Shown here: positions 7,474-56,500 of the stretch, piece after piece
Numbering within the stretch: position 1 is the stretch's first letter
Layout of the letters: every line of letters begins with the position of its first letter
Source of the DNA: Escherichia phage vB_EcoM_EC001
Length of the DNA: 64,000 bases
Direction: 5' to 3' (one strand)
Sequence record: MN445185.1
Program-made: the position numbers and the translations under genes
The notes under the pieces: generated by a model
Databases searched by the model: none
Seen by the model: only the letters and a program-made list of their open reading frames with translations
Told to the model about the DNA's origin: nothing

Positions 7474-9984
7474 ATGCTCAAGGTCGAACGTATCATTTTG
7501 AAAGGATTTACCGGCATGGGGTTACATGAAATCGAAACGTTTGATTTCACCCTCAAGTCCACCGTTACCATCATCCTCGGCGGTAACGGCTGCGGTAAAA
7601 CAAGCCTCCTATCTGTTTTTCTCCCCATAGCTCCAGCAAAATCTGAATTCCGTGAAGGTGGTTCTTACACTAACTACGCGTTAGTCGGGGACGACCGTCT
7701 TAAGTTTGAAGTCCTGCGTCGTGGGTCTTCTCTGTCTTGTAGTATCTTCAACATCACTAAAGGTGTTTCCGTCGTAGACTCGGTAAACGCCAAAGTTTAC
7801 AACTCCATGGTGGAGCAATTAACCGGAATCACCAAAGAAATCAAAGAGTTAATTAATGGTGAGACCTTATTAACTGACGCCACTACCGAAGTTCGTCGTA
7901 AATGGTTTACGTTAATGTCAGAATCTGATCTGACGTACGTTGTTGGTTGTTATCGTCGTCTGCGTAAACTCGCTTCCAGTTTAAGTGGGGCCATTGAGCA
8001 CACCGGCCGTAAAATCGGTGAGGCAAAAATGCGCGTGGTGGACGATGAAGAAGATCGTGCACGTTTGGAAGTTCGTTTGAAAGAACTGGACGTTGAGCTT
8101 CAGGAACTAAACCGCACCATTGAAGCGAGACCCGGTTTAGATAACGCCGTTTCGGTTGATAGTATCCGGAAACGCATTGCTTCGTTGCAACCGGCTGTAA
8201 AACTCATTATGGAGCGTTATGGTGTTCTGCCTTCTGACGAACTGATTAACGAGTTTCAAAGTCGTGTAGTTGCCTGGCGTGAGCAAGCTGCCTCTGCTGA
8301 AACTGAATGCAACATGTACAATAAAGAGTTGTCACAGCTACTGGATGAGGAGTCGCGTCAAGCGTATCTGATGCGCAACCATACCGGTCTAAAACAAACA
8401 ATCGACAGCTTAAAACAGGAACTGGCAACGTTCCAACAGAACTGGATGTTCCCGGCTCTGTTTGAAGGTACCCGCATCGATGTGGATAGCATTCAGAACG
8501 CGTTAAACGATGCCTGTAACTGGAATTTACCGTTGTCCATGCATCTGGACCAGTTAAAGACAACAGAGCGCCTGGGAGCGTTAGAGAAGCGTTTACAGGG
8601 TATGGATTTAACCTCTGCGGGTCTATCTGAAAAGCTGCAACGTTGTGAGAATGTGCTACACGGTTTATACCACGACCGTCAACACTTCTTAGAAACTGCA
8701 GAAGTTGATTGTCCACAGTGTAACCACCGTTTCCGTCCTGGGATTCGTAAGTCGTTACCTGAAATTGAAAAGGCCATCAACGATAATGAAGGTTGGAAGA
8801 AGCAGCTGAAAGACGAAATGGATAGTCTTTTGCGTGACCGCAAAGAGATTGAAGAGGACGTCCGTAGCTTACGTACGATTCGCGAAATCGTCATGTCGTA
8901 TTCCAATCATCCCGTTGTCGGTTTGTTTTTCCGTAAACTGCAGGAGCTGGATATCTTCACCACGGCGCGGGATCGTTACGGTGCCATTGCACGTGCCTTT
9001 ACTGAAGAGTTAGATTCGGCCATGATGTATCTGCGTCAATCGGCGAAGCTTGCAACAGCGGAACGGGAATGGCAAGAGGCTGTTGCCGCAGTAGGTAACG
9101 TTGATGGTGCGCTGAGCCAGAAAATTGAACATATCCGTTCACAACTGGATGGGGCTAACCGTCGACTGATAGAATACCGCAGACAAGCCAATGAGCTGGA
9201 ACGCGAAACCACCCAACTGCAACAAACCAAAGAAGCAATCGAACGTTTCCAAAAGGGCTACGAACATCTGGTATCGGAAATGAACATCTCCGTTAACAAC
9301 GTCGTGGTTCGCGAGTTGTTAAACCGACGCGAAGCGAAGCTCGATGCGTATACTTCCGCTCGTGAACGGTTTCGTCAAATGGAAGGGGCTATTGCACGTT
9401 TAGCGGAACTGGAAAAAGAGCAAGCTGAATTGCTTAAAGAGCATCACCATGCCAGATTGATTATCAATGCCGTCTCACCCGAAAAAGGATTATTGCGTCG
9501 TTACTTTTATGCTGCGATTACCCGCATCATGGATTTAATGAATCGGTATATCGAAATGGTGTGGGCATATCCGATGCAGGTTATTCCATGCGATCTAACC
9601 GACGGGGATTTGGATTATACTTTCCCGGTACGATTAAAAGACCATGAAGAACTGGTGCCGGATGTGAAGAAAGGTTCGAAGGCACAGCGTATTATCTTTA
9701 ACATGATGTTTCGTTTAACGGCGTATAAAGCGCTTGGTTTACAAAACTATCCTTTGTTATTGGATGAACCCTCTGAAGGCATGGATGAGGAACACAAAAA
9801 TCGACTGGTCAACTTCATTAAATCGTTGGCGTTGTCGGGAGAGTTTTCTCAATTGCTGGTCGTTTCGCATGAAGCGGAAGTTCATTCTAAACTTAACGAA
9901 GCCACCTACTGTGTCGTGGAGCCAGAAGGTGTAACGCTTCCACCGGTTTATAACGAAGGGGTAATAATCAAATATGCATCATAA
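7474..9984 (+). CDS. Rad50/SbcC-like SMC-family ATPase (836 aa)
   Basis: N-terminal Walker A GGNGCGKTS; long predicted coiled-coil; central CPQC (zinc-hook-like); C-terminal Walker B/D-loop LLLDEPSEGMD and VVSHE. Assigned by motif architecture only. Confidence 0.75.
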   Translation: MLKVERIILKGFTGMGLHEIETFDFTLKSTVTIILGGNGCGKTSLLSVFLPIAPAKSEFREGGSYTNYALVGDDRLKFEVLRRGSSLSCSIFNITKGVSVVDSVNAKVYNSMVEQLTGITKEIKELINGETLLTDATTEVRRKWFTLMSESDLTYVVGCYRRLRKLASSLSGAIEHTGRKIGEAKMRVVDDEEDRARLEVRLKELDVELQELNRTIEARPGLDNAVSVDSIRKRIASLQPAVKLIMERYGVLPSDELINEFQSRVVAWREQAASAETECNMYNKELSQLLDEESRQAYLMRNHTGLKQTIDSLKQELATFQQNWMFPALFEGTRIDVDSIQNALNDACNWNLPLSMHLDQLKTTERLGALEKRLQGMDLTSAGLSEKLQRCENVLHGLYHDRQHFLETAEVDCPQCNHRFRPGIRKSLPEIEKAINDNEGWKKQLKDEMDSLLRDRKEIEEDVRSLRTIREIVMSYSNHPVVGLFFRKLQELDIFTTARDRYGAIARAFTEELDSAMMYLRQSAKLATAEREWQEAVAAVGNVDGALSQKIEHIRSQLDGANRRLIEYRRQANELERETTQLQQTKEAIERFQKGYEHLVSEMNISVNNVVVRELLNRREAKLDAYTSARERFRQMEGAIARLAELEKEQAELLKEHHHARLIINAVSPEKGLLRRYFYAAITRIMDLMNRYIEMVWAYPMQVIPCDLTDGDLDYTFPVRLKDHEELVPDVKKGSKAQRIIFNMMFRLTAYKALGLQNYPLLLDEPSEGMDEEHKNRLVNFIKSLALSGEFSQLLVVSHEAEVHSKLNEATYCVVEPEGVTLPPVYNEGVIIKYAS

Positions 9985-19642: not shown

Positions 19643-20362
19643 ATGACCTATCCTAAAATTCTGCCTGTTTTAACGCCCACCGTTGTTGTTGGGACGGACT
19701 TAGAGACCCTGGCTTTACGTCCAGATGCCTACATCTTAACGTTGGCAAACGTGGCATTCGATGTTCCGACAATGAAAATGATCGGTTCATGTTACCACAA
19801 AATCGACCCCAATGATGCAAAAGCAAAAGAAATCTTCTACATCGATCCACAAACGGTCGGTTATTGGGAAGGTAAAGGCGACCCCGAATACGCACCGAGC
19901 GAGAAAGCACGTATTGAAGCGTTTTCTGGGACCACACCACTGCCAGAAGCACTGTGGGCGGCCAAAAAATGGTTGGATGATCTGGGCAACGTGAAAATGG
20001 TTATCACCATGCGCGGTCCCGATTTCGATGCTCCAATTCTGATGAACGCATTTGCACAGTGCGATATCCCGCCGGGCAAGTACCGCAAGTTTTCTATTTT
20101 GGACTCTGACCGGACTGCAGAACGTATTGCATATGCGTTTGGCTTGGAACCTAACTGGCACGCAGAAGCCCACCACTGGACCCGTGGCAAAGAAGCGTAC
20201 GAGCATAACGCTAACTTTGATGCTGCGAAGGAAGCGTATTCTACGGCACGCATCTATCATTTGGCCCTGGTCGCGCGTACGTACGGCTTCGAACGCATGT
20301 TAGAAGCCCACCGCGAAATGTGCACAGGTGAATACATTCCACCGCAGTTGCGAGGAGAATAA
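19643..20362 (+). CDS. DEDDh-family 3'-5' exonuclease (239 aa)
   Basis: Exo I-like VVGTDLET (D-x-E), Exo II-like GPDFDAPILMNAF, Exo III-like HNANFDAAKEAY (H-x4-D). Confidence 0.65.
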   Translation: MTYPKILPVLTPTVVVGTDLETLALRPDAYILTLANVAFDVPTMKMIGSCYHKIDPNDAKAKEIFYIDPQTVGYWEGKGDPEYAPSEKARIEAFSGTTPLPEALWAAKKWLDDLGNVKMVITMRGPDFDAPILMNAFAQCDIPPGKYRKFSILDSDRTAERIAYAFGLEPNWHAEAHHWTRGKEAYEHNANFDAAKEAYSTARIYHLALVARTYGFERMLEAHREMCTGEYIPPQLRGE

Positions 20363-21876
20363 TGAAAGACGTCGACGTAGCGGTTATTTATACCGATGGT
20401 AGTCATACTGAGTCCCCGAAAGGTTCGGGGGCTGGTATTCATGGTTATTTATTCAACAACGGAGATTTGGAAGACAGTCAGGCTTATAGCCATCCGGGTG
20501 TTTCAGAACGGATTACCACTGTTGGATACAAAAAAGTGCCGCAGGATGTGAAGTGTCCGGAGTTGCCGGACACCGTTCAATTTGTCGACGCCGTTATTCC
20601 CGTTCCGAAAGAGTTCTACTCAGATGTGGGCGAGTTAATCGCCTTCATCACGTTGTTTGAGAACGCACCCTTCCGCGCGAAGAACTATATTATCTACGTG
20701 GATGCCAGTTATGTTGTAAACACTTTTAACGAGTGGATAGACGGCTGGCATAAACGTGGTTGGGTTCGTGCTGACGGTACTCCGCTGGCGAACAAAGAAC
20801 TTATTGTTCGTATCTGGGAAATCAAACAGCAGATGAAAAAAGAAGGACGGGGTGTTAAGGTTATCAAAATCAAAGGACACTCCGGCCACTACGGTAACGA
20901 CCGGGCGGACGAATTGGCTAGAAAAGGTTCAGCTATCACAGCGACCAACGACGGCGTTCCATATCAGCCGTACTGGTCGAAGGATGAGTTGCCTGCATCC
21001 GCGGAACCCGAGCCCATCGCCGCTGGGATGAACCTTGCGGCATATCCGCCGATTTGTACGGTTAAATATTGCTATCCGTTGGTGAACGAGGACCATCCTA
21101 CTGTAAAAGTGAAAGATGAAACTTTCTATTACATGTTTGGTGGCAACCATGCAAAGAACAAGGACGACTTGGTGTTTATTGGGAAAATGATTCCTGATGC
21201 ACACTTTTCCGTAATGTTCACTAAACAACCGTGGGATAACATCTACACGATTGTAAACAACCACGCCGCCCTGGCATGGAAAGATACACCGAAGATGCGG
21301 CAGTATGATCCAATCGGCGTTGTTAACAATGAGTTCGTTAAACGTAAGAAGTTCGTTGACGTGGCAGGTGATGGATTACCAGCAGACAAGATGCATTTCA
21401 GTGGAGAAGATTCCAACGTCTGGTTCTTTGAAGACCTGGCCATCTCCAGAATGCTTCGCCCACCCTTATTGTCGTACCGTGCGCTGGATATTCGTGACGA
21501 ACTCGCTACAACGTTGCGTGATGTTCTGCATCAGGAAAAGGGTTATGTCTTAAACGATATTACCGACTTGCTATTCGACGACAAAGGTAAACCTGTCAAG
21601 GAATACTACCGCAGCGTCGATAAGTCAATAACGTTAAAGATTGACTTTCCGATGGGTAAACGACCTGTCTCGGTTATTTTGACGCGTGGTATCGATATTC
21701 CATCGCGTACGGAAATCAACCGTATTAAAGAACCGGAAGGCCGTTATTACATCGCGGTGTGTCGTCCTGAAAAATACTACATCCGTTACTTCTTAATCTA
21801 TATCGGTAAAGAGTATCATGGGTTGTGGTGTGCGTATTACGCAAACCGTCGCATACTGCGAGAAGAAGAGGTGTAA
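20362..21876 (+). CDS. RNase H (type 1) domain fused to ~310-aa C-terminal domain of unknown function (504 aa)
   Basis: N-terminal ~190 aa align by eye to E. coli RNase HI catalytic motifs: VIYTDGS, ELIAF (Glu), IIYVDASYV (Asp), WHKRGW, KIKGHSGHYGNDRADELARKG. Confidence 0.85.
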   Translation: MKDVDVAVIYTDGSHTESPKGSGAGIHGYLFNNGDLEDSQAYSHPGVSERITTVGYKKVPQDVKCPELPDTVQFVDAVIPVPKEFYSDVGELIAFITLFENAPFRAKNYIIYVDASYVVNTFNEWIDGWHKRGWVRADGTPLANKELIVRIWEIKQQMKKEGRGVKVIKIKGHSGHYGNDRADELARKGSAITATNDGVPYQPYWSKDELPASAEPEPIAAGMNLAAYPPICTVKYCYPLVNEDHPTVKVKDETFYYMFGGNHAKNKDDLVFIGKMIPDAHFSVMFTKQPWDNIYTIVNNHAALAWKDTPKMRQYDPIGVVNNEFVKRKKFVDVAGDGLPADKMHFSGEDSNVWFFEDLAISRMLRPPLLSYRALDIRDELATTLRDVLHQEKGYVLNDITDLLFDDKGKPVKEYYRSVDKSITLKIDFPMGKRPVSVILTRGIDIPSRTEINRIKEPEGRYYIAVCRPEKYYIRYFLIYIGKEYHGLWCAYYANRRILREEEV

Positions 21877-25366: not shown

Positions 25367-26290
25367 ATGGACAGCTTTCTTTTTGATTTGGCAGAATCGG
25401 TAAATGTAGATGTAATCGGTATGCGCGAATCCCCGAGTAATTTCTTAAACGGTCTTACTAAAATCGACGAACGTGTGAAATCCAGAAGTGGAGATCCCGC
25501 CATCATCGAGCAATACGCAATAGCCCATTGTGGCGAGATAGGCCAGCACTTTATACCGATTGAGGCGTTCCTAAAGAACTGCTTCGCCGAAGAATGCACC
25601 GCAGACTTCCTGTCTCTTGCCTACGGCTGGCGATACGGGGGTATCCAAATGGAATTTGATCTTAATATTTTTGAACAAGTTCTACTTGGCGACGTTCTCA
25701 CTGAGATACCACGCAGCTGGATAGACAAGATTCCCGGTTGGGCCGTCTCCTTTTCAGTGTGCTATCGCGCTAAAGATATCGGTATCCAAGAAAAGACTTA
25801 CGTTTTCGGTCGGCGAATGTTTAAAGGGAAAGATTGTTTAACAATGATGATTTTTGGAAAACGTATCGAGGGGGAAACCTTTGAAATCGTGGACGTGGGT
25901 GACGGCTTTGTATCCTTGCGTGTGGCGGAAACTGGTACGCCGGCCAATGAGAAAACGTTACGCATTGTCGGCGCTACCATGTTTACATTCTCACTGATCC
26001 CGCACAACCCTACACCCGTCAAACTGAGACAATTAACTGGAAAGAAACGTATCGCCAATTACCACATTGAACCAAAATCTAAACCGACTGTCCTCTCCAC
26101 CGTAAAAGCACAAAGCGAGTATCTTGAAGAATTTGATACTGATACGGAGAAAAGAACACAAGGTAGCAGATGTGCGCATATGCGTCGTGCACACTGGTGT
26201 ACTTACTGGCTCGGTCCACGTGACGGGAATCGGACAAAGATTTTGAAATGGATACCGCCGACATTTGTCAACGGTTCTAAATGCAAATAA
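25367..26290 (+). CDS. hypothetical protein (307 aa), Cys/His-rich C-terminus
   Basis: AAAGGAG SD preceded by TTAATCGACCATTA motif; C-terminal RCAHMRRAHWC…SKCK could bind metal (speculative). Confidence 0.65.
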   Translation: MDSFLFDLAESVNVDVIGMRESPSNFLNGLTKIDERVKSRSGDPAIIEQYAIAHCGEIGQHFIPIEAFLKNCFAEECTADFLSLAYGWRYGGIQMEFDLNIFEQVLLGDVLTEIPRSWIDKIPGWAVSFSVCYRAKDIGIQEKTYVFGRRMFKGKDCLTMMIFGKRIEGETFEIVDVGDGFVSLRVAETGTPANEKTLRIVGATMFTFSLIPHNPTPVKLRQLTGKKRIANYHIEPKSKPTVLSTVKAQSEYLEEFDTDTEKRTQGSRCAHMRRAHWCTYWLGPRDGNRTKILKWIPPTFVNGSKCK

Positions 26291-27495: not shown

Positions 27496-27510
27496 TTGAC
27501 GGAGCGCTAA

Positions 27511-29004
27511 ATGGCAGGTCCAGCTAAACAAGTCATGGGTGAAGTGATTCGCCCTCGTTTTAACGTATATACCATCATGGACCACGCTCTCGGTAACTAC
27601 GAGCGCGGGGAAGATGGTTTGTACTACCTCAACGGTGGTTTTGCCCACATCATGGGCTTCGCAGGTCGTGGGAACACCTTTAAGTCTACCTTATTAGACT
27701 TCTGCATTTTCATGATTCTGCAACGTTATAATGCGGCCTGGGGATCGAAATACGATACCGAAGTTACGGCAGCATTAAGTCGTCTGGAAACGGGGTATAT
27801 CTCCGCTGCGAAAGCAAACGGATTAGAAGTATCACCAACAGGCGGCGTGCTGGACCTGATCCACGAAGGTCGTTACAACATGGTTGGCTCGGATATCATG
27901 GCGGGTGAGGAGTATTACTCTGCTTATATCCGTGACGAAGTCGAAAAACGTTTCAAAGAGTACATGGCTGGTAAGGCACGCGAAACACCGTTCCCGGACC
28001 CAATCCGTCGCTCTGCGAAAAAGATTCTCGACCCGTGGTTGTACTCGATTGACTCCCTGTCCGAATGGCACACCTCTTCTCTGGAAGAGAAACATGCCAA
28101 ATCAGAAGTCGGTGATTCTGAACAGAACATCCTGAACGCCCACGATGCGTTGCAGAAATCGAACATGATGAGCCGTTGGCCGTCTGCGTTTGCGCGTGGT
28201 GGTTTCTATATGGGCTTCGTTGCTCAGTTGGCCGACGATGCGGGTAAAGCAATGGCGGCAGGTGGCCGTGGTGGACCGAAGGCGAACGGTAAACTGTTGG
28301 ACGATGCAGGCGATGATCTGAAGTTTGCGGGTATCCCGCGCCGTCAGTTGTCGTTCTTAACTAACTCCCTGCTGGTTGCAACCAAGTCTGGTGAGTTGAA
28401 GCAGGATCAGACTTACAACGCGAAGACCGGTGTAAACGAAGAGAAATACCCGACTGCGCGTTCGAAAGCAATGAATGCTTCGGTGAACGACCTGAAAGAA
28501 ATTGTTTTCACGCAGTACCGTGCGAAGGGTGGTCACACAGGCGTTAAGTTCAAAATGGTCTTCTCGCAGGAGATGGGTCTGCTTTATCACCTCTCTCTGT
28601 GGCATTACCTGAGCGACACACTGAAAGATGAATGGGGCTACAAACGTAGTGGTGCTAACTATACCCTCGATTTGCTACCTGGTACATCTTTCATGCGTAC
28701 CACGATTCGCGACATGTGTGACAGCAACCCGCGTTTGCGCCGTGCGTTGGAAATCACCGCCGCATTAGCGTACATGCAGAATAACTACCACCGACTGGAA
28801 ATGAAATACCATCTCTCACCGGCGGAGCTTTATAAAGTTATCGACGAAAAGTGGGACTGGAATGAAATTCTGGACAATACAGTGGAATACTGGATGTTCA
28901 AGGATCAGGAAGTCAAAGGTGGTAAGCGTTGCTTAACAGCAATGTCATTACTGGCGATGGCCGTGGATGGTCTGGAACCTAAGTTCTTGACTAAGAAGAA
29001 ATAA
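27511..29004 (+). CDS. UvsX/RecA-like recombinase (497 aa)
   Basis: …AHIMGFAGRGNTFKSTLLDF… parallels T4 UvsX degenerate P-loop (…ILAGPSKSFKSNFGL…) and downstream KYDTEV ~ UvsX FYDSEF; from memory of the UvsX sequence. Confidence 0.65.
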   Translation: MAGPAKQVMGEVIRPRFNVYTIMDHALGNYERGEDGLYYLNGGFAHIMGFAGRGNTFKSTLLDFCIFMILQRYNAAWGSKYDTEVTAALSRLETGYISAAKANGLEVSPTGGVLDLIHEGRYNMVGSDIMAGEEYYSAYIRDEVEKRFKEYMAGKARETPFPDPIRRSAKKILDPWLYSIDSLSEWHTSSLEEKHAKSEVGDSEQNILNAHDALQKSNMMSRWPSAFARGGFYMGFVAQLADDAGKAMAAGGRGGPKANGKLLDDAGDDLKFAGIPRRQLSFLTNSLLVATKSGELKQDQTYNAKTGVNEEKYPTARSKAMNASVNDLKEIVFTQYRAKGGHTGVKFKMVFSQEMGLLYHLSLWHYLSDTLKDEWGYKRSGANYTLDLLPGTSFMRTTIRDMCDSNPRLRRALEITAALAYMQNNYHRLEMKYHLSPAELYKVIDEKWDWNEILDNTVEYWMFKDQEVKGGKRCLTAMSLLAMAVDGLEPKFLTKKK

Positions 29005-29008
29005 GCAT

Positions 29009-29034
29009 GGGCGGGGCAACCCGCCTGTTTTTTC
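29009..29034 (+). terminator. intrinsic terminator
   Basis: GGGCGGG-gcaa-CCCGCCT then GTTTTTTCC. Confidence 0.7.
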
Positions 29035-29049
29035 CCCTGAGGATTAGCG

Positions 29050-29325
29050 ATGCGTTATCAGAAAGATATTGTAGAGCGTCTGTGTCTGGGTCTCGCTGGT
29101 ATTAGCCAGGAACTTAGCACCGCGTTCCATAACGAGTTCTCAGCACCGCGACATGCACTGTCTGAATTTAGTCATCAGGTAAATGCCCATTACGGCAACC
29201 TGATTAATGATAAACCGAAGGTTGATGCGGTCGGTGTGCCTGAACACAATGAAGATATCCCGTACTGGATTGAAGACCTGGAACGTGTGGTTCTTCCAGT
29301 GCTCCGTGAGAGGATGAAAAAATGA
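29050..29325 (+). CDS. hypothetical protein (91 aa)
   Basis: GAGGA SD; follows a terminator. Confidence 0.5.
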   Translation: MRYQKDIVERLCLGLAGISQELSTAFHNEFSAPRHALSEFSHQVNAHYGNLINDKPKVDAVGVPEHNEDIPYWIEDLERVVLPVLRERMKK

Positions 29326-29990
29326 GATTAGACCCGGCACGGCGAAAAAAAGCAGAAGCTTATGCTTTACAGTTACTGAACTTAGTTGACCCGACCGGGA
29401 TTAACGCGGAAGCTGCCAAGCGCGCTTTCTCACGAATGTCTGACGAAGAGTTCAATCGTCTGCGCGAAGGGTTGCCTGTTTACAACCCAACTGGCGGCAA
29501 GGTCAAAATTGACCATATGCGCAATATTAAAATTTGCGAAGCGATGGGACTGAGCTTGTGTCAGCGCCTGTGGCTCACGGAACCGAAAACCGGTATCCTA
29601 CAACGTACCCGTTACCCCCATTTAGTCTTCCGCCTGCCTGCACGTCGCCAGACGCAGATGCAAGAGAAGAAAATGGCGGTGGCGAAGAACGATAAAGTCC
29701 GCGATAAACTCTCAGGTCAGGTAGTAGGTCCTTCCAAAGCTTCGGGTGTTTCGTTTCCAGAAGCCTACATCATGTACTCGGATGGACACGACTCAACGCT
29801 CCAGGAGTTCCTGTGGGCGCGTGGTGGTAACGATACGTTACAACGTGCGTTCTATCAATCGCTACGGCAAACCGGTAAAGGTCGCATCAACCTGGAAGGG
29901 GCTGAGCGTACCAGTTCAAAAGCGCCGCGTACATGGTCTTCGTACTTTAAAGCAATGCACATCGGTAACAACTTAGGACGCCCGGAATGA
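29322..29990 (+). CDS. hypothetical protein (222 aa)
   Basis: ATGA overlap with upstream gene. Confidence 0.6.
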   Translation: MRLDPARRKKAEAYALQLLNLVDPTGINAEAAKRAFSRMSDEEFNRLREGLPVYNPTGGKVKIDHMRNIKICEAMGLSLCQRLWLTEPKTGILQRTRYPHLVFRLPARRQTQMQEKKMAVAKNDKVRDKLSGQVVGPSKASGVSFPEAYIMYSDGHDSTLQEFLWARGGNDTLQRAFYQSLRQTGKGRINLEGAERTSSKAPRTWSSYFKAMHIGNNLGRPE

Positions 29991-44747: not shown

Positions 44748-47700
44748 TTAGCTTGCTTTCCGACTTACGTTTAACGACGGTGTCGGTTGGGTTATTTCCT
44801 GCCTGCGTGCAGCTGAGCCCGGAGGAGCCACATTTGCCGCTTGCTGGATACTACCACCCCGTGTGTCGTTTGCCGCTCTCGGATTTGATTTCAAAATATC
44901 ACGAATCTCTTTCAAGTAATCGCGAGACTGAATCAGTACCTTGAGCTGCTGAACATCTATCGGGTCACCATTCAGCGTTGGCGTCGATGCTGTAGCATCA
45001 GAAGTTGGGGCGGCAACTGGACGAGCTGCTGCGTTAACCTGCGCTTCCGCGCCTGCTTTCACTTTAGCAACATCCGTTGCAGACAATCCTTCTGCTGCAG
45101 CTTGCGACGCTACGGTTTCGGCTGTTGTTGAGGCATCGGATGTTCCGGAACCACCTGTAGTTGGTGTAGGTGCTGCTGGTCCTACATTACCTGCGGCGGT
45201 AGCCATTGCATCTTGTGCCGCCATGGCCCCTTTCTGCGTCAATGCGTCATCACGACGATTAGCATTATCTGCCGGCAGGTTATCTGCTGGCGACAGACTC
45301 GGATCATTAGCGGCCGGTGCACCCATTGCTGCTGCCGGGTTGGTTGGTGAATTAGGCGACAAGCCTGCAACCATATCCTTCGTCTTACTCGGATCGGCAG
45401 CGACTTCGTTGGCAGAAATTGCGCCCATACGGCGGTTCAGTTCCTGAATAACCCCATCCACGCTACGTATACGACCGTTGCTGTAGAAGACGTTGGCATT
45501 CCCTCTCAATATTGCGGATGTAATCCCAGGAGCACTCGATGCCGCCATATTCGGATTACGCTTCCATGCTTCCAGGAATTTCTTACCGCCGCCCGCACCC
45601 AGGAAGTGATACAGATAAGCCACGGCTGGAGGTGGTGCTTTACCACCCAGGTCACGCTGTGCTTGTTGGATGTTGTCACGAATGAACTGTACACCCAATA
45701 TAGCATTCGCCCACGGGTCCATCTGGTTAACACGCGGAATACCGAACTTCCGCGAATACCCCTTCATCATCCCGTCCCACGTACCGTCAATAAACTGGAA
45801 CAACCCAGACGCCGAAGCATACGGGTTTTTAGCGGTGTAGTTAAATCCGGACTCCGCCTTAGCCATTGCTAACGCCACTGCAGGTGGCACGCCCATCATG
45901 TTCGCCGCATCGGTAATCAATGCTTTGATATTCGGAACGTTCAACGCACCCTTTCTACCCAACATTTCTATCGGGTATTTTTCAGCCAGTGACTTATAAT
46001 CACCGTCTTTCACATCACTCAGGTTAATCGAAGACGAACCAGTGGTCATTGCAGCGTAGTTCCGCACACCACCAACCGCATCGACGACTTGACCCAAGTT
46101 ACCCGGCACACCACCACTCGTACCCGATGGAATGTAGCCTGAGGCGCGAGCACCGTCAGATGACAAAGAATCTCCCGAACTGATGTTCGAGTCTTCTTCA
46201 TCTTCATCGGTGACTTCCAGAGAACTGCGGTTCTTGTTACGATCCTTCCAGCGCGCACGCTTGCCATTATTTCTAATGGCTTTAATCATGTTACGCACGG
46301 CAAGGTCAGCTTCTTTTGACAACAGCTTCAGCGTTTCCAGCTCGGCTTTAATAGACGATGGGTTCGTGTTAGCCTCACCCCCTAATGGGTTGATATTCAC
46401 TTCCCACACCGACTGTCTTATACCACCTTTCAAGCTGTAGGCTGTTGACATCATCAAGCTGATTTCGTACAGGTAACCACCAGTCAGCTTCAAGTTCAGC
46501 GGATCGGCTGTTGGCAGGTAACGCTTCACCCCAACCAAATACGTCATGAATACCGGTAAGAAACGGTCAAAGAACCACCGCTTCAAACGATCTTCTTTCG
46601 GTGTACCGATAGCGTCTGGAACCATCGAGGCGATTGCTTTCTTCCAATCTCCTTTGTAGCTTGCGGTTTTCACGTCAATGTCTTTGATGACGTTCTTCTC
46701 GAATACCGTGATCAACGTGCGGGTGGCGTTATCGATGGTGGTAAAGCCGTAAGTCTTCCAACGCACCGATTCCATCGCATTCATGTCTTTCTGGTCGAGC
46801 ACCGCATTCCAGTCTACCTGAATCTGAACCTGCTCTGTTCCGTCTTCCCAACCCTCTACCTTCGCCAGATTTTTATTACGTTCGTTATCCAACTGTCCAA
46901 GTTTGTTGATAGCTTCATCAACGCCCGCGGACTTAATCCCCTCCACGGCCGGTGCCATTCCGTACTTACGTGCTTTCTTATCGTCCATTCTGGACTTGAT
47001 TGCACGCTCGACTTCATTCTGCACTTCCATAACCTCTTCACCGCTCAAGAACTCCTTCGGTGTAAAGGTTACAACGTCCCAAGCTTTCGAGAAGAAACCT
47101 TGGTTGACTTTGCGTGGGTCTGTTAACGAAGAGAACGCTTTTGCATCCTTAGTCATCTTCATTTTGTTGAAGAGAGTCAGCATGTCCTCTTTCGATACTT
47201 TCTTCGCATCGCCGACGTCAGCCAACTGGATACTGTTCGGCATTGACTTCAGTGCCGTAATCCAGCGGAGATAAATCGGAATAAAGCGCTGAAGCATAAA
47301 CGCTTGGAAGGCCAACATCTCGCCTTTTTCCTCAACGTTAATACCGAACCCTTCAGCTAGCTTCTGAACGTCTTTTCCACTTAGCCCGCGGAGACTGGCT
47401 TGGCCATCTTCCGCGTAAGACACATACTCACGCAATGCGTCTTCTAAGTAACGCGCTTTCGCCCCGTCGTCCGACGACCACTTATCGTAATCACGGAAAC
47501 CGTACTGAGCTAAACGCATCTTATCCAGGTACTGGGTATAGGTAGTCGTTGCAATCCTGTACGCGGCGTAACCAGCCGCAGCGATCGCACCACCGATAAG
47601 AATTGCCGGCCAACCCACCGCAGTCACGACGGCAGATGCCGCAGTTGCCACAGCGGACACCGCGGGTGCCGCCAAACGGGTTACTGCGAACTTACCGACA

Positions 47701-50700
47701 TTCCACGCAGCCTTACCTAAAAGACCTACTGGTTTTAACACGCCCCATTTCGTGATAGAACCGAGTATATTACCCACAGTTCCCAAGATACTGACGATGG
47801 GACCGATGATAGGTAAGCTTTTCACCATATCCCACAGACCGCCAGATTTCCCTTTGGAGCCCTGCGCTTTCTCTTTCTTCTCCTTACGTTTCTCACGCCA
47901 ACGTTTGAAGAAGTTAAGGTAATCGCGTTTTTCATCACCTTCAGGCGGCTTGTTACGTTTACCGAACTTCGCAAACATGGTGCGAATAATGCCATCGTCA
48001 CCACCTGCACGGGATACTGATTCGCGCATGGTGTTAAACCATGACATCTCTTGCAAGCCAATCATTCGGTCCAAGCGTTCGAATAACCTTGCGCCTGCAG
48101 ACTTGGCGGCATTCTTCCCTTTGTTAATAACCCTCCCTGCTGCATCACGGGCGGTCTCAAGGTCTTCCTTCGCATCGCCGTAGACTTTACGGCCAGAAAG
48201 GCCACCTTTCGCGTTCAAATGGCTGCGATAAAACTCAGCAACATCATCGTCGCGTCCAGCCAACCGACGTTCAACTTCGTAACGTGTAGCAATGTCGTGT
48301 CGTGCTCCACGATATCCATCGAGCATATCCCCAGCCCGGCCTCGGAAACCACTGAACCAACCACGCAGGCGGTCACGTCCACGACCAAAGAACGCTTTTG
48401 TTCTTGACCAACGTCCACCAAAACGTTCAGACAGTGACGCTTTCGCGCGATCATACGCCCCGCGTACTGCACGACCGATCGTACTACCGCCACCCCCGAC
48501 GCCCTTCTCCATTTCCTCTGTCCAACTTTCGTCTTCCGGATCTCCCGGTAAACGTTGGTTCAACAGTTTATAGATACGGATAAGGATGTGGTTGGTTTTC
48601 TTGCCGGTTGATGAGAAGAGACTGAAACCACCGCCCCCACCATCTTTACGGCCTTTCCACCAACGCGTCAGTGGGTTGTCGGTAATCATGTCTTTCAGAC
48701 GATCGACACCACGTTTCGCAAAACCGAGCACTTTACCCGGTAAGCTCGTTACACGGTTGAACGCTTTCTGGAGACGTGTCTTTTCTTCGCCTTCCGGAAT
48801 CTCGTTCAGCCAGTCCTTAATCTTACCAACGATGCTGCCCGCTTTCGGTGACAGGAAATCCAGGAACCTTTTCGGTAGCTTAGCCACCTTATTAAAGCCT
48901 AAGCCAATCTTACTGGCCAGACCTTGGGTCAGTGCTTGGATTTTCCCGCCTTTATAGTAGCGGAGTTTACCCGCAGCGGCTAAGTCAGCGGCTGCTAATA
49001 TCAGATTACCTGCGGAGTCAACAATATCACTCCCCAGCTTGATGTCGTCCAGCGTTTTCAGCTGAACCATTTTACCATCAATGACCTGATAGTATTCTCC
49101 AGCTTCCAGACGTGCACCTTGCAGAACAACATTACCGTGGTCATCGTAAACGTCACGGATACCCAGTAGTCCTTTACCGAAAGAGCTTACCGCTTCAAAG
49201 CCACCACGGACACTACCGCTGATAAGGCCACGCATCCGGGTTAAGAAACCAGGACCTTCTCCGCCACCCATTCCTGCGACTTTACCGCGTGCCCAGCCAC
49301 CGAACTGGTTCAGTTTATTCCAGGCACCCTTAACACCACGTTTCGCAAAGCCACCGATTCCTGCTGCGGTGTCGAACAACACACCACCCCAACGACGAAT
49401 AAGCCCATCTTCACCGATGATAATACGACGGCGTTTACCGCCACCGCTACCACCACCAGGACGAGGTGGTCCCATCTCTTCGTCACCAGAACCAGCACCC
49501 CCTGCTAACGAAGCCAGGAGAACCCCTTCTTCGTCCATACTTCTGACGTGTTCCAGAATTTTCTGGAGGGTGTCACTGTTGTTATTACCCCGAATCGCTT
49601 CGATGATGCCGTCAAAGTTATTCCGTGGCGCTTCTTCGCCGCGGTTACGTTGACTCAACAATTCAACAAAGTTAGTCGAGGTTTCACCGTAGAGAACTGC
49701 GGCTAACTGCCGAGGCGACATTCCGCGGCCTTTACCACCGCCACGTAAAGCCGGCGGCAACGACGTGTCATCGGCACCACCATTTACCCCTTGGTTCATT
49801 CGGCGCAGATAGTCGCCTAACGCCGAACCGTTTTGCAGCTTACGTTGAATCTCCTGCTCACGAGTCAACGCACGACCGCTGCGTGTCTTACCCATTGCCA
49901 AGTCATTAAACAAGGTATAGGGATCGGACAGGTCTTTATCCACGCCGAAAGTGTCACTCTTCGCGTCGTAGTTAAAGATACCCGCATCGCGCAATGCTCG
50001 CTCACCGTAAATATTCACCGCCTCGTCGATAATTGCCTGACGTTGGGTGATAGATGACTGCACTGTGGAGATTTTGCGGGCCAGCTCGTTACTTAATTCG
50101 TTGCTACCGCCGACCAAGCTATCAGAATGCCCCTGTAACGCTTCCTTAATGCGTTCTGCGGCGTTTCCTGGCATATACCGATGAAGATGCATCGGGTCTT
50201 TCAGAATCGCTTCTACGTCGAATGCGCGGCCCTGCGAGGCTCGCGACTCGATATAGTCGGCGAGATGCTGTCGATCCTTCTGCGAGAGCGTTTTGCCGCG
50301 GTCAACAAAATCCACAGTGCTGTTAATGGAATTTTGGAGACGCAGGCGTTGTTCATCGTTTGCAACCGCCTTGCGTACGCGGTTACCGACCACTTTGCGG
50401 TCTACGAAACCACGGCTGGTGATGTCATATTCCAGGTCGGCATGTTCGCCATAGCCACGACGGACAGATTTGTTAATCTCTGCCAGCCAGGCAGGAATAA
50501 CTTCAACCAGGCTAAGATATGCTTTACGGTCAAACTTCGCCGAACGGCTTAACGTTTCGCCATTACGCTCGTCAAGGAAGGCTTTCTCGCGGTTTAGCGG
50601 TTGGACAATACCGAGTTCATTCAATACCCGGAACAAATCCGCCAACGGCCCTTGCGTTTCGCCTGCGATAGCTGAGTTCGAGATAGAGGAAAGATTACCA

Positions 50701-51869
50701 AAGGTGAACGCGCCTTTCTGCAGGCGTTTCATGACCTCTGGATTTTTCTCCATCTCCTCACGAGTCCATTTCTGGAGTTTCTCGATTTGTGGGCCGAGTA
50801 GTTTCTTCGCAAGGAATCCGCTACCCCACGCAGTTGCTTTATCACGAGCATTTGTTTTGCGACGTTCAGCAGTCAACGAAGAGCTGTCGCTCATGCCGAA
50901 ATCGTCTTCAACACCCATGCCGAGAACAGACTCTAACAAACCACGACCTTCGCCAAATATACCAGAAATCTTCTTCTTGGTATTTTCGCGAATCATGTCC
51001 ATAAACCCGTCAGCATAACGCAACGGGTTCATCCATTCCGCAGCCTGGCGTTTAACGTTCGCCCAACGGACTTCTGAGAAATCTTCCTTCGCGTAATCCG
51101 GCAATGCCGTGTTCTTCACGATGGCTTCTAAAGCAGGCGTATTACGATCGAACTCCGACTGCTTCATCTTCACGATGTCTTGGATGGCAAACAGGGTACG
51201 GTATTGCAGTTCGAGTTTCTTACGCTCGATGTTTAAGAATACCCCACGGCTTAACCCGGTTAGCAGGTTAATGTCTTTCGCCATCCCAATCATGGTTTGG
51301 TGCATTGCATCCGCACGCATCTCTTTGATGCTGTCGCGGAGCTTATCCTCTACCATGCGGTCCTGCAGCTGACGTTGTTCATCGGCATCCTTTGGCACAC
51401 CTGAGAATACGTCGCCCAGTTCACGATCCATCAATGCCTGATTCGGATCGTAGTTCTGGTAATCTAACTGGTCAGATTTTGACCACTTGTCGATGCGCTT
51501 AGTAACTGCATCCGGCAAGTATTTCTTCATCGTCGGACCGAGTTGGCGCGCTTGCATCTTCAGCGTGCGCTCGGTCTTCACAAGCTCCCCTTTCGTATGG
51601 GCGTAAATGTCCTTTGCTGCAGCTGCCGCTGACTGATAGCCCTCGTATGCATCAGCTGCCGGCTTAGGCATCCCCTTGAGGATAACTTGGTCGCGTTTCC
51701 CTTCTGGCCAGATAGTTGACAACGCCGACTTCCTGGCAACATTCAGGGTACTGAGTATCGGGCTTCGTTTTTTCTCGTCTTTGGGACGGGGTGGTTCACC
51801 GAAATCATCCCAGTCGTCGAGTCTATCTAAATCGATATCATCGAAACCGTCTTTGCCTCTTTTTGCCAT
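44748..51869 (-). CDS. giant protein (2373 aa) with lytic-transglycosylase (SLT) domain; candidate virion/ejection protein
   Basis: 7.1-kb ORF; SLT active-site motif …AMAKAESGFNYTAKNPYASASGLFQF… ~375 aa from C-terminus (nt ~45500-45960); Gly/Arg-rich segments; long hydrophobic segment (…AVATAASAVVTAVGWPAILIGGAIAAAGYAAY…); Ala/Pro/Thr-rich C-terminus. Confidence 0.9.
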   Translation of the reverse strand: MAKRGKDGFDDIDLDRLDDWDDFGEPPRPKDEKKRSPILSTLNVARKSALSTIWPEGKRDQVILKGMPKPAADAYEGYQSAAAAAKDIYAHTKGELVKTERTLKMQARQLGPTMKKYLPDAVTKRIDKWSKSDQLDYQNYDPNQALMDRELGDVFSGVPKDADEQRQLQDRMVEDKLRDSIKEMRADAMHQTMIGMAKDINLLTGLSRGVFLNIERKKLELQYRTLFAIQDIVKMKQSEFDRNTPALEAIVKNTALPDYAKEDFSEVRWANVKRQAAEWMNPLRYADGFMDMIRENTKKKISGIFGEGRGLLESVLGMGVEDDFGMSDSSSLTAERRKTNARDKATAWGSGFLAKKLLGPQIEKLQKWTREEMEKNPEVMKRLQKGAFTFGNLSSISNSAIAGETQGPLADLFRVLNELGIVQPLNREKAFLDERNGETLSRSAKFDRKAYLSLVEVIPAWLAEINKSVRRGYGEHADLEYDITSRGFVDRKVVGNRVRKAVANDEQRLRLQNSINSTVDFVDRGKTLSQKDRQHLADYIESRASQGRAFDVEAILKDPMHLHRYMPGNAAERIKEALQGHSDSLVGGSNELSNELARKISTVQSSITQRQAIIDEAVNIYGERALRDAGIFNYDAKSDTFGVDKDLSDPYTLFNDLAMGKTRSGRALTREQEIQRKLQNGSALGDYLRRMNQGVNGGADDTSLPPALRGGGKGRGMSPRQLAAVLYGETSTNFVELLSQRNRGEEAPRNNFDGIIEAIRGNNNSDTLQKILEHVRSMDEEGVLLASLAGGAGSGDEEMGPPRPGGGSGGGKRRRIIIGEDGLIRRWGGVLFDTAAGIGGFAKRGVKGAWNKLNQFGGWARGKVAGMGGGEGPGFLTRMRGLISGSVRGGFEAVSSFGKGLLGIRDVYDDHGNVVLQGARLEAGEYYQVIDGKMVQLKTLDDIKLGSDIVDSAGNLILAAADLAAAGKLRYYKGGKIQALTQGLASKIGLGFNKVAKLPKRFLDFLSPKAGSIVGKIKDWLNEIPEGEEKTRLQKAFNRVTSLPGKVLGFAKRGVDRLKDMITDNPLTRWWKGRKDGGGGGFSLFSSTGKKTNHILIRIYKLLNQRLPGDPEDESWTEEMEKGVGGGGSTIGRAVRGAYDRAKASLSERFGGRWSRTKAFFGRGRDRLRGWFSGFRGRAGDMLDGYRGARHDIATRYEVERRLAGRDDDVAEFYRSHLNAKGGLSGRKVYGDAKEDLETARDAAGRVINKGKNAAKSAGARLFERLDRMIGLQEMSWFNTMRESVSRAGGDDGIIRTMFAKFGKRNKPPEGDEKRDYLNFFKRWREKRKEKKEKAQGSKGKSGGLWDMVKSLPIIGPIVSILGTVGNILGSITKWGVLKPVGLLGKAAWNVGKFAVTRLAAPAVSAVATAASAVVTAVGWPAILIGGAIAAAGYAAYRIATTTYTQYLDKMRLAQYGFRDYDKWSSDDGAKARYLEDALREYVSYAEDGQASLRGLSGKDVQKLAEGFGINVEEKGEMLAFQAFMLQRFIPIYLRWITALKSMPNSIQLADVGDAKKVSKEDMLTLFNKMKMTKDAKAFSSLTDPRKVNQGFFSKAWDVVTFTPKEFLSGEEVMEVQNEVERAIKSRMDDKKARKYGMAPAVEGIKSAGVDEAINKLGQLDNERNKNLAKVEGWEDGTEQVQIQVDWNAVLDQKDMNAMESVRWKTYGFTTIDNATRTLITVFEKNVIKDIDVKTASYKGDWKKAIASMVPDAIGTPKEDRLKRWFFDRFLPVFMTYLVGVKRYLPTADPLNLKLTGGYLYEISLMMSTAYSLKGGIRQSVWEVNINPLGGEANTNPSSIKAELETLKLLSKEADLAVRNMIKAIRNNGKRARWKDRNKNRSSLEVTDEDEEDSNISSGDSLSSDGARASGYIPSGTSGGVPGNLGQVVDAVGGVRNYAAMTTGSSSINLSDVKDGDYKSLAEKYPIEMLGRKGALNVPNIKALITDAANMMGVPPAVALAMAKAESGFNYTAKNPYASASGLFQFIDGTWDGMMKGYSRKFGIPRVNQMDPWANAILGVQFIRDNIQQAQRDLGGKAPPPAVAYLYHFLGAGGGKKFLEAWKRNPNMAASSAPGITSAILRGNANVFYSNGRIRSVDGVIQELNRRMGAISANEVAADPSKTKDMVAGLSPNSPTNPAAAMGAPAANDPSLSPADNLPADNANRRDDALTQKGAMAAQDAMATAAGNVGPAAPTPTTGGSGTSDASTTAETVASQAAAEGLSATDVAKVKAGAEAQVNAAARPVAAPTSDATASTPTLNGDPIDVQQLKVLIQSRDYLKEIRDILKSNPRAANDTRGGSIQQAANVAPPGSAARRQEITQPTPSLNVSRKAS

Positions 51870-53530: not shown

Positions 53531-56500
53531 ATGATTTTTCTGAAACAGTTTAACCAGCGCTTTACCGTGCGCAAGACCGATGAGTTCGGTCGTCCGCGTA
53601 TTATCCCGCTGGAGAAGCTCCAGCTCCCACGTGGTTCTATCTACCACACCATCGATTTAGACCAGGTGGTTTTAGCGCCGCCGTTAACCACACCGTGTTT
53701 TGGCCAGCTGGAAAAACCGGCGATGATTCGCCACCACTTCCAGCTGCCTGAAGACGGCATTATTGGCCACCCGCGTAAGAAACCGGTTGTTGGCCAAGAA
53801 CGTCAAATCTTCCAGTACCATCGTAACAACCGTCGTATTCGTCGCATGATTGAAGACGGCGTGGTACGTTCAGATCCGAAAGTGCTGCTCATCGAAAACT
53901 ACACCCCGATGCTGCCGCATTATTTCTACCCTGATACTCTGATGTCCTGGTACGAACGTCTGCACAACATTCAGCTGCTGATAACTAACCAGATGAAAAC
54001 TGACTCACGTGAGTACATGCGTCAGAACTACTACATCATCGAACTGGGTAACGTACTGCCTTCTTTCGATCGTTTTAAAATGACGTATAACGATCGTGTT
54101 AAAACCAAACTGGAGCGCTTTAAGGACTTTAATCTCCTGTGGTTACTGGAACTGTTCGGTTGGGCTTACGGCGATCAGCAAGCAACACTGTTTGACGGCA
54201 TGGACATGAACCAGCTGTCACGTGTGAACTTTATCTTCACGCACAACGGTGGTTTTACATCCATGAACATGGGTGTAATTGAAAGAATGCGTAAGTCTGC
54301 CGGCGGTCGTTTGACTGACGTGCAGATGGGCAGAATGTTCTACCGTACACTGACTACGGTGATGACCACACCGCCGTCTACCGACTACGAAGATGACGAG
54401 TTCGTTACACCGGAAGGGGACGAACGCGTACATCTGGGAGAGGACGACGATGTTGTTGAAGCCGTTGCCAGTAAACCGGAAGAAACCCTCGATATCGTCG
54501 ACGATGAAGCAACACAAAGCGACAACGTTGACGATATATTGAACGATCATGAGTTCGATGAGAAAGAAGATCTGGTCATCGAAGCGCCGAAAGAAGATGT
54601 CAAACCAACCACCATCGTCGTAGAACGCACCATCCCACACGATGCTGTGATTAAACAGGAAGTTGAGCGCCTGGCAGAAGCGGGCCGCGTCACCGCCAAA
54701 GCGTATCAGTTCCTGAACGAATCTTCTAAACGTTTCGTAAACTTACCCAACCCGTACAATCCTAAAGAGACGTACGGCGAAGGTCTGACCATCGATCCGA
54801 AGAAACTCGAAGTTAAAGCCGAGCCTAAGAAGATTGAACGCTTAGTTACGGATGAAGCCTGGGCGGAAAATACCACCGACCAAATCATTCGTCAGTACAA
54901 CCAGGAAATCTTCCCGAAAGATATTCTGGGGGCAGTAGCGTCATCTCAGCGTCTCGGTTTGGCGATTCACAATCACACTGTTGAGAAAGAGATTTCCGTT
55001 ACCGGGAATATCGAACACCACACGTTGCGTATTCAGCCGATTGGCGGAGAACCAACCACGGTACGTTTCTCAATTCCTGCATTAACCGAAGACGGTACTT
55101 GGGTTGCAAATGGTGTGGAATATACAATGCGTCGTCAGCGTGTTGATCTTCCTATCCGTAAAGTGTCCCACGATACTGTAGCGTTAACCACTGCCTACGG
55201 GAAGAACTTTGTCCGTCGCAGTGATAAAGTCGTCAATGATTACGGACGTTGGCTCACTAACGCGATTATTACTCGCGCGGTCGATCCAAAGAACACCGAA
55301 ATCACTGATGCAAAACTGGCGAATGTGTTCGATCCGCTGTCTAAACTGCCGCGTCAATATACCGAAGTGGCGCGTCGTGTAGCAGCGTTCAACGCAATTG
55401 GGTACCAATGGAGCTTTGACATTAAACAGAAAGCGGCATTCTTTAACGAAGGGCAACTGGCAGACGCGGACCGTGTCGAGCTGGTACCTGTGGCGAAGAA
55501 ACCGCGGAGTCATGTCATCGTCGGTATGGATAAAAACTCCCAGCTTTATCGAGTGGATAAGGATAAGACCGAACCACTGGGTACACTCGCCGAGGTCTTT
55601 GGCGTGGACACCTCTAAGGCTCCACGAGAAATGACCGAACTGTCACTGATGGGCAAATCAATCTCGCTGGGCTTTGTGTTTTCGTACTATCTCGGGTTAA
55701 CCGGGATGTTGAAACACTTTGGTATCAGTTACGAGGTTCTCTCTGTCGGACAACGTATCGATAAAGGTCAGTTCGACTCCATCATTCGTCTCCAGGATGC
55801 GAAAATTGCAATTGTCTGCGAGAACGATCAACAGAGGATGATTGTCAACGGCTTAGACCGTTACATCAAACACTTTACCACGTATACCGAGTCGGAAGTT
55901 GACCGGGAAGACATTTATCTGAACCTGTTACGCGATGCAGATGGGCTAACACCACGCTACATCAAAGAGCTGAAACTGATGCGAACCGCATTTGTTGATG
56001 ACATGCACGCGCGTATCCTCAGGAAAATGGGCGAGCCGGAAACCTTTATCGGCTTACTGGAGCGTTCTAACGAACTGCTGCAGACGGACCACACGTTACC
56101 GGAAATTAACGGTGACGAAATGATGTTCATCGGGAACCAACGTATTTCGTATCACATCTACACCGCGATGGTGCGGGCGATGCGTAACTACAACAACGCG
56201 CCTAACTCGAATCGTAAGTTTGAGTTGACGCAGGACATGGTGTGGGGTGCGATTAACTCCGACCCGTCTGTTCTGCTGGCTCCTGGCGCAAACCCGGTAC
56301 AGAACATCAAAGAAAAAGATGTTGTTACCATGGGCGGTACAGGCGGTCGTAACCGCAAAACCATGGTATACAGTACCCGTGAATTCCAACCGAGCGACCT
56401 GGGGATTATCTCCGGTAACACGGTCGATAACGGCGACGTAGGTATCACCGCCTTTGCAACAAACAATCCGCGTTACGACACCGTGGACGGCACGACCTTT

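Follow-up and report, generated by a model that had tools for sequence, protein, structure and literature searches.

Fold, catalytic motifs and domain architecture of gp216, a RecA/UvsX-like recombinase of a SPN3US-like jumbo phage

Several jumbo phages encode proteins described as relatives of the recombinases RecA and UvsX. The gp216 protein of phage SPN3US has been described as a diverged UvsX homolog (PMC5694885), and gp152/Nlp1 of phage phiKZ is a UvsX/RecA homolog that enters the phage nucleus and has been used to carry EcoRI inside (10.1101/2024.03.27.586873; PMC11087766; PMC12908238). PhiPA3 'RecA' and PCH45 gp72 'UvsX' have been described as homologs of phiKZ gp152/Nlp1, and nuclear import has been reported for the homologs of phiKZ, PhiPA3 and PCH45 (PMC11087766; 10.1101/2024.03.27.586873; 10.64898/2025.12.19.695335). 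When nlp1 is deleted, phiKZ replicates more slowly, forms small plaques and is sensitive to NucC, the effector of the cyclic-oligonucleotide-based anti-phage signalling system (CBASS) (PMC12676376), and the UvsX of PCH45 is nuclear and non-essential (10.64898/2025.12.19.695335). Among jumbo phages, the UvsX partners UvsY (mediator) and UvsW (helicase) reportedly occur only in the T4-like ones of group 2 (PMC7824862). Here we analysed the gp216 gene in a stretch of 64,000 nucleotides of Escherichia phage vB_EcoM_EC001 (MN445185.1), hereafter the window, out of a genome of ~240 kb. The gene is located as follows:

27511..29004, plus strand: coding sequence of the RecA/UvsX-like recombinase gp216, 497 aa with an ATG start, from the list of open reading frames (ORFs)

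An initial annotation of the window had read this gene as a UvsX/RecA-like recombinase. The RecA fold, the match to phrog_97, the homology to phiKZ gp152 and a conserved catalytic set all support that reading. We consider it highly probable (roughly 0.85) that gp216 is a recombinase of the RecA superfamily, encoded by a jumbo phage of the SPN3US-like type (Seoulvirus, phiKZ-related), and the counterpart of phiKZ gp152/Nlp1. Our analysis shows that the protein combines a RecA-type ATPase core and a RecA-type C-terminal domain with a complete and strongly conserved catalytic set. It is a member of a jumbo-phage family of RecA/UvsX-like recombinases (phrog_97; phiKZ Nlp1) that was already known.

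Fold and relatives of gp216

The AlphaFold2 model of gp216, built on an alignment termed A1, had a predicted local distance difference test (pLDDT) score of 88.6 and a predicted template modelling (pTM) score of 0.90. The model had one disordered stretch, residues 244-261, and pLDDT fell below 50 nowhere else. A RecA-type alpha/beta ATPase core, on which the initial annotation depended, was predicted, and bacterial RecA accounted for all 50 top matches when the model was compared with PDB by Foldseek (E 1e-11 to 7e-9). Identity to bacterial RecA (3cmu, 8amd) is ~15%, and gp216 differs from it by ~200 residues without RecA counterpart, by its non-canonical P-loop and by the lack of an N-terminal helix and of any match to TIGR02012 or PF00154. 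The structural similarity to Rad51/RadA/DMC1 was lower, and gp216 has no N-terminal helix-hairpin-helix domain.

The window DNA is 98.5-99.2% identical to that of SPN3US-like Salmonella jumbo phages, and the gp216 protein shows 100% amino acid identity to SPN3US YP_009153510.1 (ACQ60_gp050). Comparison with PHROGs gave a match to phrog_97, 'UvsX-like recombinase', with E 2.8e-55; gp216 and phiKZ gp152/Nlp1 share one PHROG, via the 'UvsX-like recombinase' annotations on phiKZ-like matches. BLASTP aligned gp216 with PHIKZ152 at 30% identity over residues 13-497 (E 2e-54). The two proteins are similar in length (497 and 479 aa) and have in common an F-containing P-loop, the YDTE, IDS and R-x-K motifs and the C-terminal module. 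The P-loop of gp152 reads SRPNNFKT, with both canonical glycines replaced, and is more degenerate than that of gp216 or T4 UvsX, whereas GRGNTFKS of gp216 retains the first Gly; in addition, an insertion at residues ~296-327 is longer in gp216. A profile of 62 gp216 homologs (A1) retrieved 951 cluster representatives at 50% identity out of 1.84 billion searched. Nearly all of them measure 460-520 aa, indicating that the length of gp216 is a trait of the family and not peculiar to this phage.

The initial annotation had also noticed a local parallel to T4 UvsX at the P-loop and the YD[ST]E motif, which three independent alignments reproduced. Searched against 177,635 PDB sequences, profile A1 gave only two matches, T4 UvsX (3io5, E 0.028) as the best and RadA (E 1.2) as the second, both covering the segment from the P-loop to the catalytic Glu. 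Using hhalign, the profile aligned with T4 UvsX alone over 52 columns (E 3.8e-4) and with a profile of 26 UvsX sequences over 55 columns (E 2e-4), again in the P-loop-to-Glu segment, and the probability for this local block was 36-47% (E 2e-4 to 4e-4). A global hhalign of the gp216 family against the UvsX profile failed, significance being limited to the local P-loop block, and an extended alignment at mact 0.05 was consulted, with low confidence, for the register of the motifs only. The local parallel is real, yet as evidence from sequence alone it is weak. A single-sequence phmmer search of all PDB chains returned nothing informative, and its PKS13 and ATP-synthase matches at E ~1 were discarded as noise.

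By Pfam and architecture criteria, gp216 is not a T4-type UvsX. T4 UvsX (3io5) carries PF00154 and PF21134, as do all 120 UvsX relatives listed, and itself matches the RecA TIGRFAM model; gp216, in contrast, matches neither Pfam model nor the TIGRFAM one. It lacks the N-terminal helix of UvsX, has a much longer L2 region, and instead contains a RecA-type C-terminal domain followed by an extra helical module of ~70 aa. What the two proteins share is a P-loop whose second glycine is replaced by an aromatic residue (GPSKxFKS in UvsX).

Catalytic motifs and domain architecture

The predicted catalytic and DNA-binding elements of gp216 are listed below, and their conservation was counted in an alignment of 247 family members.

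27664..27687, plus strand: Walker A motif (P-loop) GRGNTFKS, residues 52-59, aligned to UvsX GPSKSFKS
27751..27762, plus strand: YDTE, residues 81-84, aligned to UvsX FYDSE; E84, predicted as the catalytic Glu, corresponds to UvsX E92
28039..28062, plus strand: Walker B strand LYSIDSLS with D181, residues 177-184; beta strand 176-181 in the model
28102..28170, plus strand: L1-like putative DNA-binding segment SEVGDSEQNILNAHDALQKSNMM, residues 198-220, with conserved residues and lowered pLDDT in the models
28225..28227, plus strand: Q239, the position of the gamma-phosphate sensor, where beta5 ends (beta strand 232-241), equivalent to UvsX H195
28240..28293, plus strand: L2-like disordered loop, residues 244-261 (pLDDT below 50), within an expanded L2 region (~242-276)
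28519..28527, plus strand: R337-A-K339, proposed trans-acting basic pair, placed by strand order (beta 328-338)

In the P-loop, Phe57 occupies the canonical position of the second Gly and aligns with UvsX F65, which is invariant in the UvsX alignment. The glycine pattern of the family, GxGNxFK[ST], is likewise non-canonical: position 57 holds F in 178 members and Y in 37, against G in just 18, an aromatic residue (F/Y/W) being present in 218/247. The other positions are strongly conserved (G52 in 225/247, N55 in 241/247, K58 and S/T59 in 245/245 each). Both the P-loop and the catalytic Glu align to UvsX as well as to RadA; D82 is conserved in 238/247 and E84 in 244/247, and we take the RecA counterpart of E84 to be E96 (RecA numbering). 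The Walker B residue D181 is found in all 247 members and S182 in 242 of them, and a permissive, low-confidence hhalign placed this strand opposite UvsX FIDSLGN. The same alignment, on which the UvsX register rests, sets Q239 against UvsX INH. The sensor is Gln in gp216, as in 35/247 members, and His in most of the family (210/247); the position presumably corresponds to RecA Q194.

The L1-like segment contains the conserved residues G201 (221/247), N206 (227/247) and K216 (241/247), in the arrangement GDS..N..K, and presumably resembles RecA GDSHMGLAARMMSQ. The loop 244-261 is probably L2-like, judging from its position right after the sensor, where L2 is placed in RecA. Strand order suggests that R337 and K339 may correspond to RecA K248/K250 and to UvsX K246/R248, both of which are invariant in the UvsX alignment. 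R337 is conserved in 247/247 members and K339 in 246/247, consistent with trans-acting basic residues that complete the ATP site of a neighbouring protomer. The catalytic set of gp216 comprises Walker A K58/S59, E84, Walker B D181, sensor Q239 and the pair R337/K339.

These elements suggest how gp216 may work. The protein would bind ATP via a UvsX-style P-loop whose second glycine is exchanged for an aromatic residue, polymerise on single-stranded DNA (ssDNA), pair it with a homologous duplex and exchange strands. R337/K339 of the adjacent protomer would act in trans to stimulate its ATP hydrolysis. By analogy with phiKZ, PhiPA3 and PCH45, it may act within the phage replication compartment in break repair and replication restart, as a fitness factor that is probably not strictly essential.

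At 497 aa, gp216 exceeds T4 UvsX (391 aa) by 106 aa, so the size difference given in the initial annotation was correct. The idea of one ~100-aa extension did not hold, since the extra length comes from a C-terminal module together with several insertions inside the protein, and the missing N-terminal helix of ~30 aa cancels part of the gain. As judged from the model and from the extended alignment (low confidence), the added internal elements are a beta-hairpin at ~28-42, a hairpin at ~156-173 ahead of Walker B, a much lengthened L2 region at ~242-276 and the insertion at ~296-327. The extra length over UvsX would be a family-wide elaboration made of the C-terminal helical module and surface insertions. 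The C-terminal part is divided as follows:

28585..28785, plus strand: RecA-type C-terminal domain, residues ~359-425 (helix, three strands, two helices)
28786..29001, plus strand: family-specific C-terminal four-helix module, residues ~426-497, without counterpart in RecA or UvsX

The four helices of the module (437-447, 450-456, 464-467 and 477-485) were modelled with pLDDT 85-97. The module is present in essentially all members of the family, with D449, W450, T457, W461 and M483 as near-invariant residues. At the opposite end, the core of gp216 is preceded by only ~12 residues, modelled as coil, and the family has only 17-26 aa before the first conserved core residue. Because the N-terminus is a short coil and UvsX residues 1-30 have no counterpart in gp216 (low-confidence extended alignment), the RecA/UvsX N-terminal helix appears to be absent. 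A Rad51-like FxxA peptide was considered as the N-terminal polymerisation element and rejected as a family feature, because the pattern aromatic-x-x-[AS]-P occurs in only 43/235 members and no FxxA-like N-terminal motif is present in the MAGP clade to which gp216 belongs.

Some homologs carry additional sequences. In a metagenomic homolog of 773 aa (P0241), an ATP-dependent DNA ligase (PF01068 and PF14743) is joined to a recombinase of the gp216 family, either as a fusion or as a gene-calling artefact. A protein of 716 aa (P0235) and a group of 635 aa (P0023-P0027) have N-terminal extensions without Pfam match. The 635-aa variants showed no similarity to the 99-aa ORF upstream in the window, and a fusion with a homolog of that ORF was discarded.

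Weighing of the recombinase reading

Several observations weigh against gp216 as a strand-exchange recombinase of the UvsX/RecA type. Its sequence similarity to UvsX is local, extending over only ~55 columns by profile methods, and it matched no Pfam family (0 at E up to 10) and no NCBIfam family (0). The N-terminal polymerisation helix was not found in the protein. The localisation and phenotypes cited above come from 30%-identical homologs of Pseudomonas and Serratia-type phages, not from SPN3US-like ones, and the literature searched contained no paper joining 'jumbo phage', 'UvsX' and 'strand exchange'. Additionally, a tandem model of two gp216 protomers joined by a 30-aa linker (AlphaFold2, 19-sequence alignment; pTM 0.78) did not reproduce the i to i+1 filament geometry of RecA. 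Foldseek matched ~930 of its columns to the filament chains of fused RecA (3cmt, 3cmw, 3cmx and 3cmu) with a root mean square deviation of ~28 A and a TMq of 0.24, which is the value for one superposed protomer. The sequential aligner is blind to a reversed protomer order, and the comparison counts neither for nor against a RecA-like filament as such.

One rival reading is a RecA-fold ATPase that does not exchange strands by itself, such as a Rad51-paralog-like mediator or a ring-forming motor of the DnaB, RadA(Sms) or KaiC type acting on phage DNA. We regard this as unlikely, given that RecA and UvsX score clearly above paralogs or helicases, that the match, with 296 aligned residues, reaches the RecA-type C-terminal domain, that the L1- and L2-like segments and the R/K pair are conserved, and that the phenotype of the phiKZ nlp1 deletion resembles that of T4 uvsX mutants (PMC12676376). 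A second rival reading holds that gp216 is a degenerate, catalytically inactive RecA-like protein, retained as a structural component or cargo of the phage nucleus, its P-loop being too divergent for ATP hydrolysis. The loss of both P-loop glycines within the family (position 57 aromatic in 218/247; SRPNNFKT in phiKZ) and the empty Pfam and NCBIfam searches speak in its favour. A dead enzyme is nevertheless not expected, because K58, S/T59, E84, D181, R337 and K339 are essentially invariant across the 247 members, down to ~25% identity. Moreover, T4 UvsX, with the identical P-loop Phe, is an active DNA-dependent ATPase, as its database annotation agrees. We therefore find an inactive protein very improbable.

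A different possibility, which we hold only tentatively, concerns the kind of recombinase. Within the RecA superfamily, the gp216/Nlp1 proteins may make up a branch with a structure of its own, in which the N-terminal helix was swapped for another protomer interface, possibly the C-terminal module, giving a non-canonical filament or oligomer; alternatively, the module and the surface insertions may form a recognition surface for nuclear import. Finally, near-identical records label the gp216 gene variously, some as 'UvsX-like recombinase' and others as 'hypothetical protein', and the latter labels are the sole point in favour of a chance ORF or mis-annotated non-gene. With hundreds of full-length homologs and a confident fold, this idea is already refuted and its probability is negligible; the 951 cluster representatives found by the 62-homolog profile place the ORF far beyond chance. 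The 497 codons are also accompanied by a ribosome-binding and a terminator-like signal:

27501..27504, plus strand: Shine-Dalgarno-like GGAG, 6 nt 5' of the gp216 ATG, read directly from the sequence
29007..29038, plus strand: intrinsic-terminator-like hairpin with a 9-bp stem (6 GC pairs) followed by TTTTTT, a consensus match only

Gene context and significance

The terminator-like hairpin with its T-run begins 3 nt past the gp216 stop codon, and the same stem was also scored on the minus strand. A scan for sigma-70 promoters around the gp216 gene showed no enrichment compared with shuffled sequences. SPN3US-like phages are transcribed by their own RNA polymerases. Among the database relatives, SPFM8_00063 and similar GenBank 'hypothetical proteins' (P0030-P0032, P0042, P0045) consist of gp216 in exact 20-aa blocks arranged in reversed order, implying that lines of 60 nt are scrambled in order in the SPFM genome records concerned, with which perfect nucleotide matches of 47-58 nt are consistent. 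The scrambled SPFM records are a database artefact without biological meaning.

The gp216 gene is followed in the window by a 91-aa ORF and then by a gene that codes for a fragment of the RNA polymerase beta subunit. This arrangement matches that of phiKZ, in which genes 152, 151, 150 and 149 (RNA polymerase beta subunit) also show the recombinase, small ORF(s) and then the polymerase gene. An RNase H-like gene is located near the recombinase in both phages (155 in phiKZ). The genes of the window that bear on this comparison or on recombination are:

29322..29990, plus strand: RNA polymerase beta-subunit fragment gene, two genes 3' of gp216 (phrog_3233, E 1.4e-93)
7474..9984: SbcC/Rad50-like ATPase (phrog_77, E 1.4e-95)
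19643..20362: DEDDh exonuclease
20362..21876: RNase H-domain protein

The initial annotation had grouped the recombinase with the Rad50-like ATPase and the exonuclease as a set for recombination-dependent replication or repair. Both genes are present and a phage-encoded toolkit is plausible, but it does not form a gene cluster: the SbcC-like, exonuclease and RNase H genes lie 5.6-17.5 kb from gp216, with a virion protein gene and unknown ORFs between. No SbcD/Mre11 partner was found beside the SbcC-like gene, whose flanking ORFs match only PHROGs of unknown function.

Elsewhere in the window, a 307-aa ORF (25367..26290, plus strand), assigned to phrog_6160 of unknown function and without Pfam match, lies in a ~1-kb insertion shared with Salmonella phage JN03 and Escherichia phage Lh1B alone. 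The insertion is absent from SPN3US and ~28 other relatives, in which the flanking genes are 63 bp apart, and the ORF may be a mobile or accessory gene. Two very large ORFs were also detected, one of 2373 aa at 44748..51869 (minus strand) and one of 1401 aa at 53531..57736 (plus strand), and the GC skew turns negative over ~42-52 kb, a region of minus-strand genes.

For the window, the value of these results is a correct annotation, because many SPN3US-like records still read 'hypothetical protein'. They also raise a structural question, namely how a RecA-type recombinase polymerises without an N-terminal helix and what role the conserved C-terminal module has. Current understanding is changed neither by the annotation nor by this question. 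The gp216 gene marks the capacity of the phage for homologous recombination and repair of its own, and its phiKZ counterpart sustains DNA replication under nuclease attack (NucC/CBASS) and is used as a cargo carrier into the phage nucleus.
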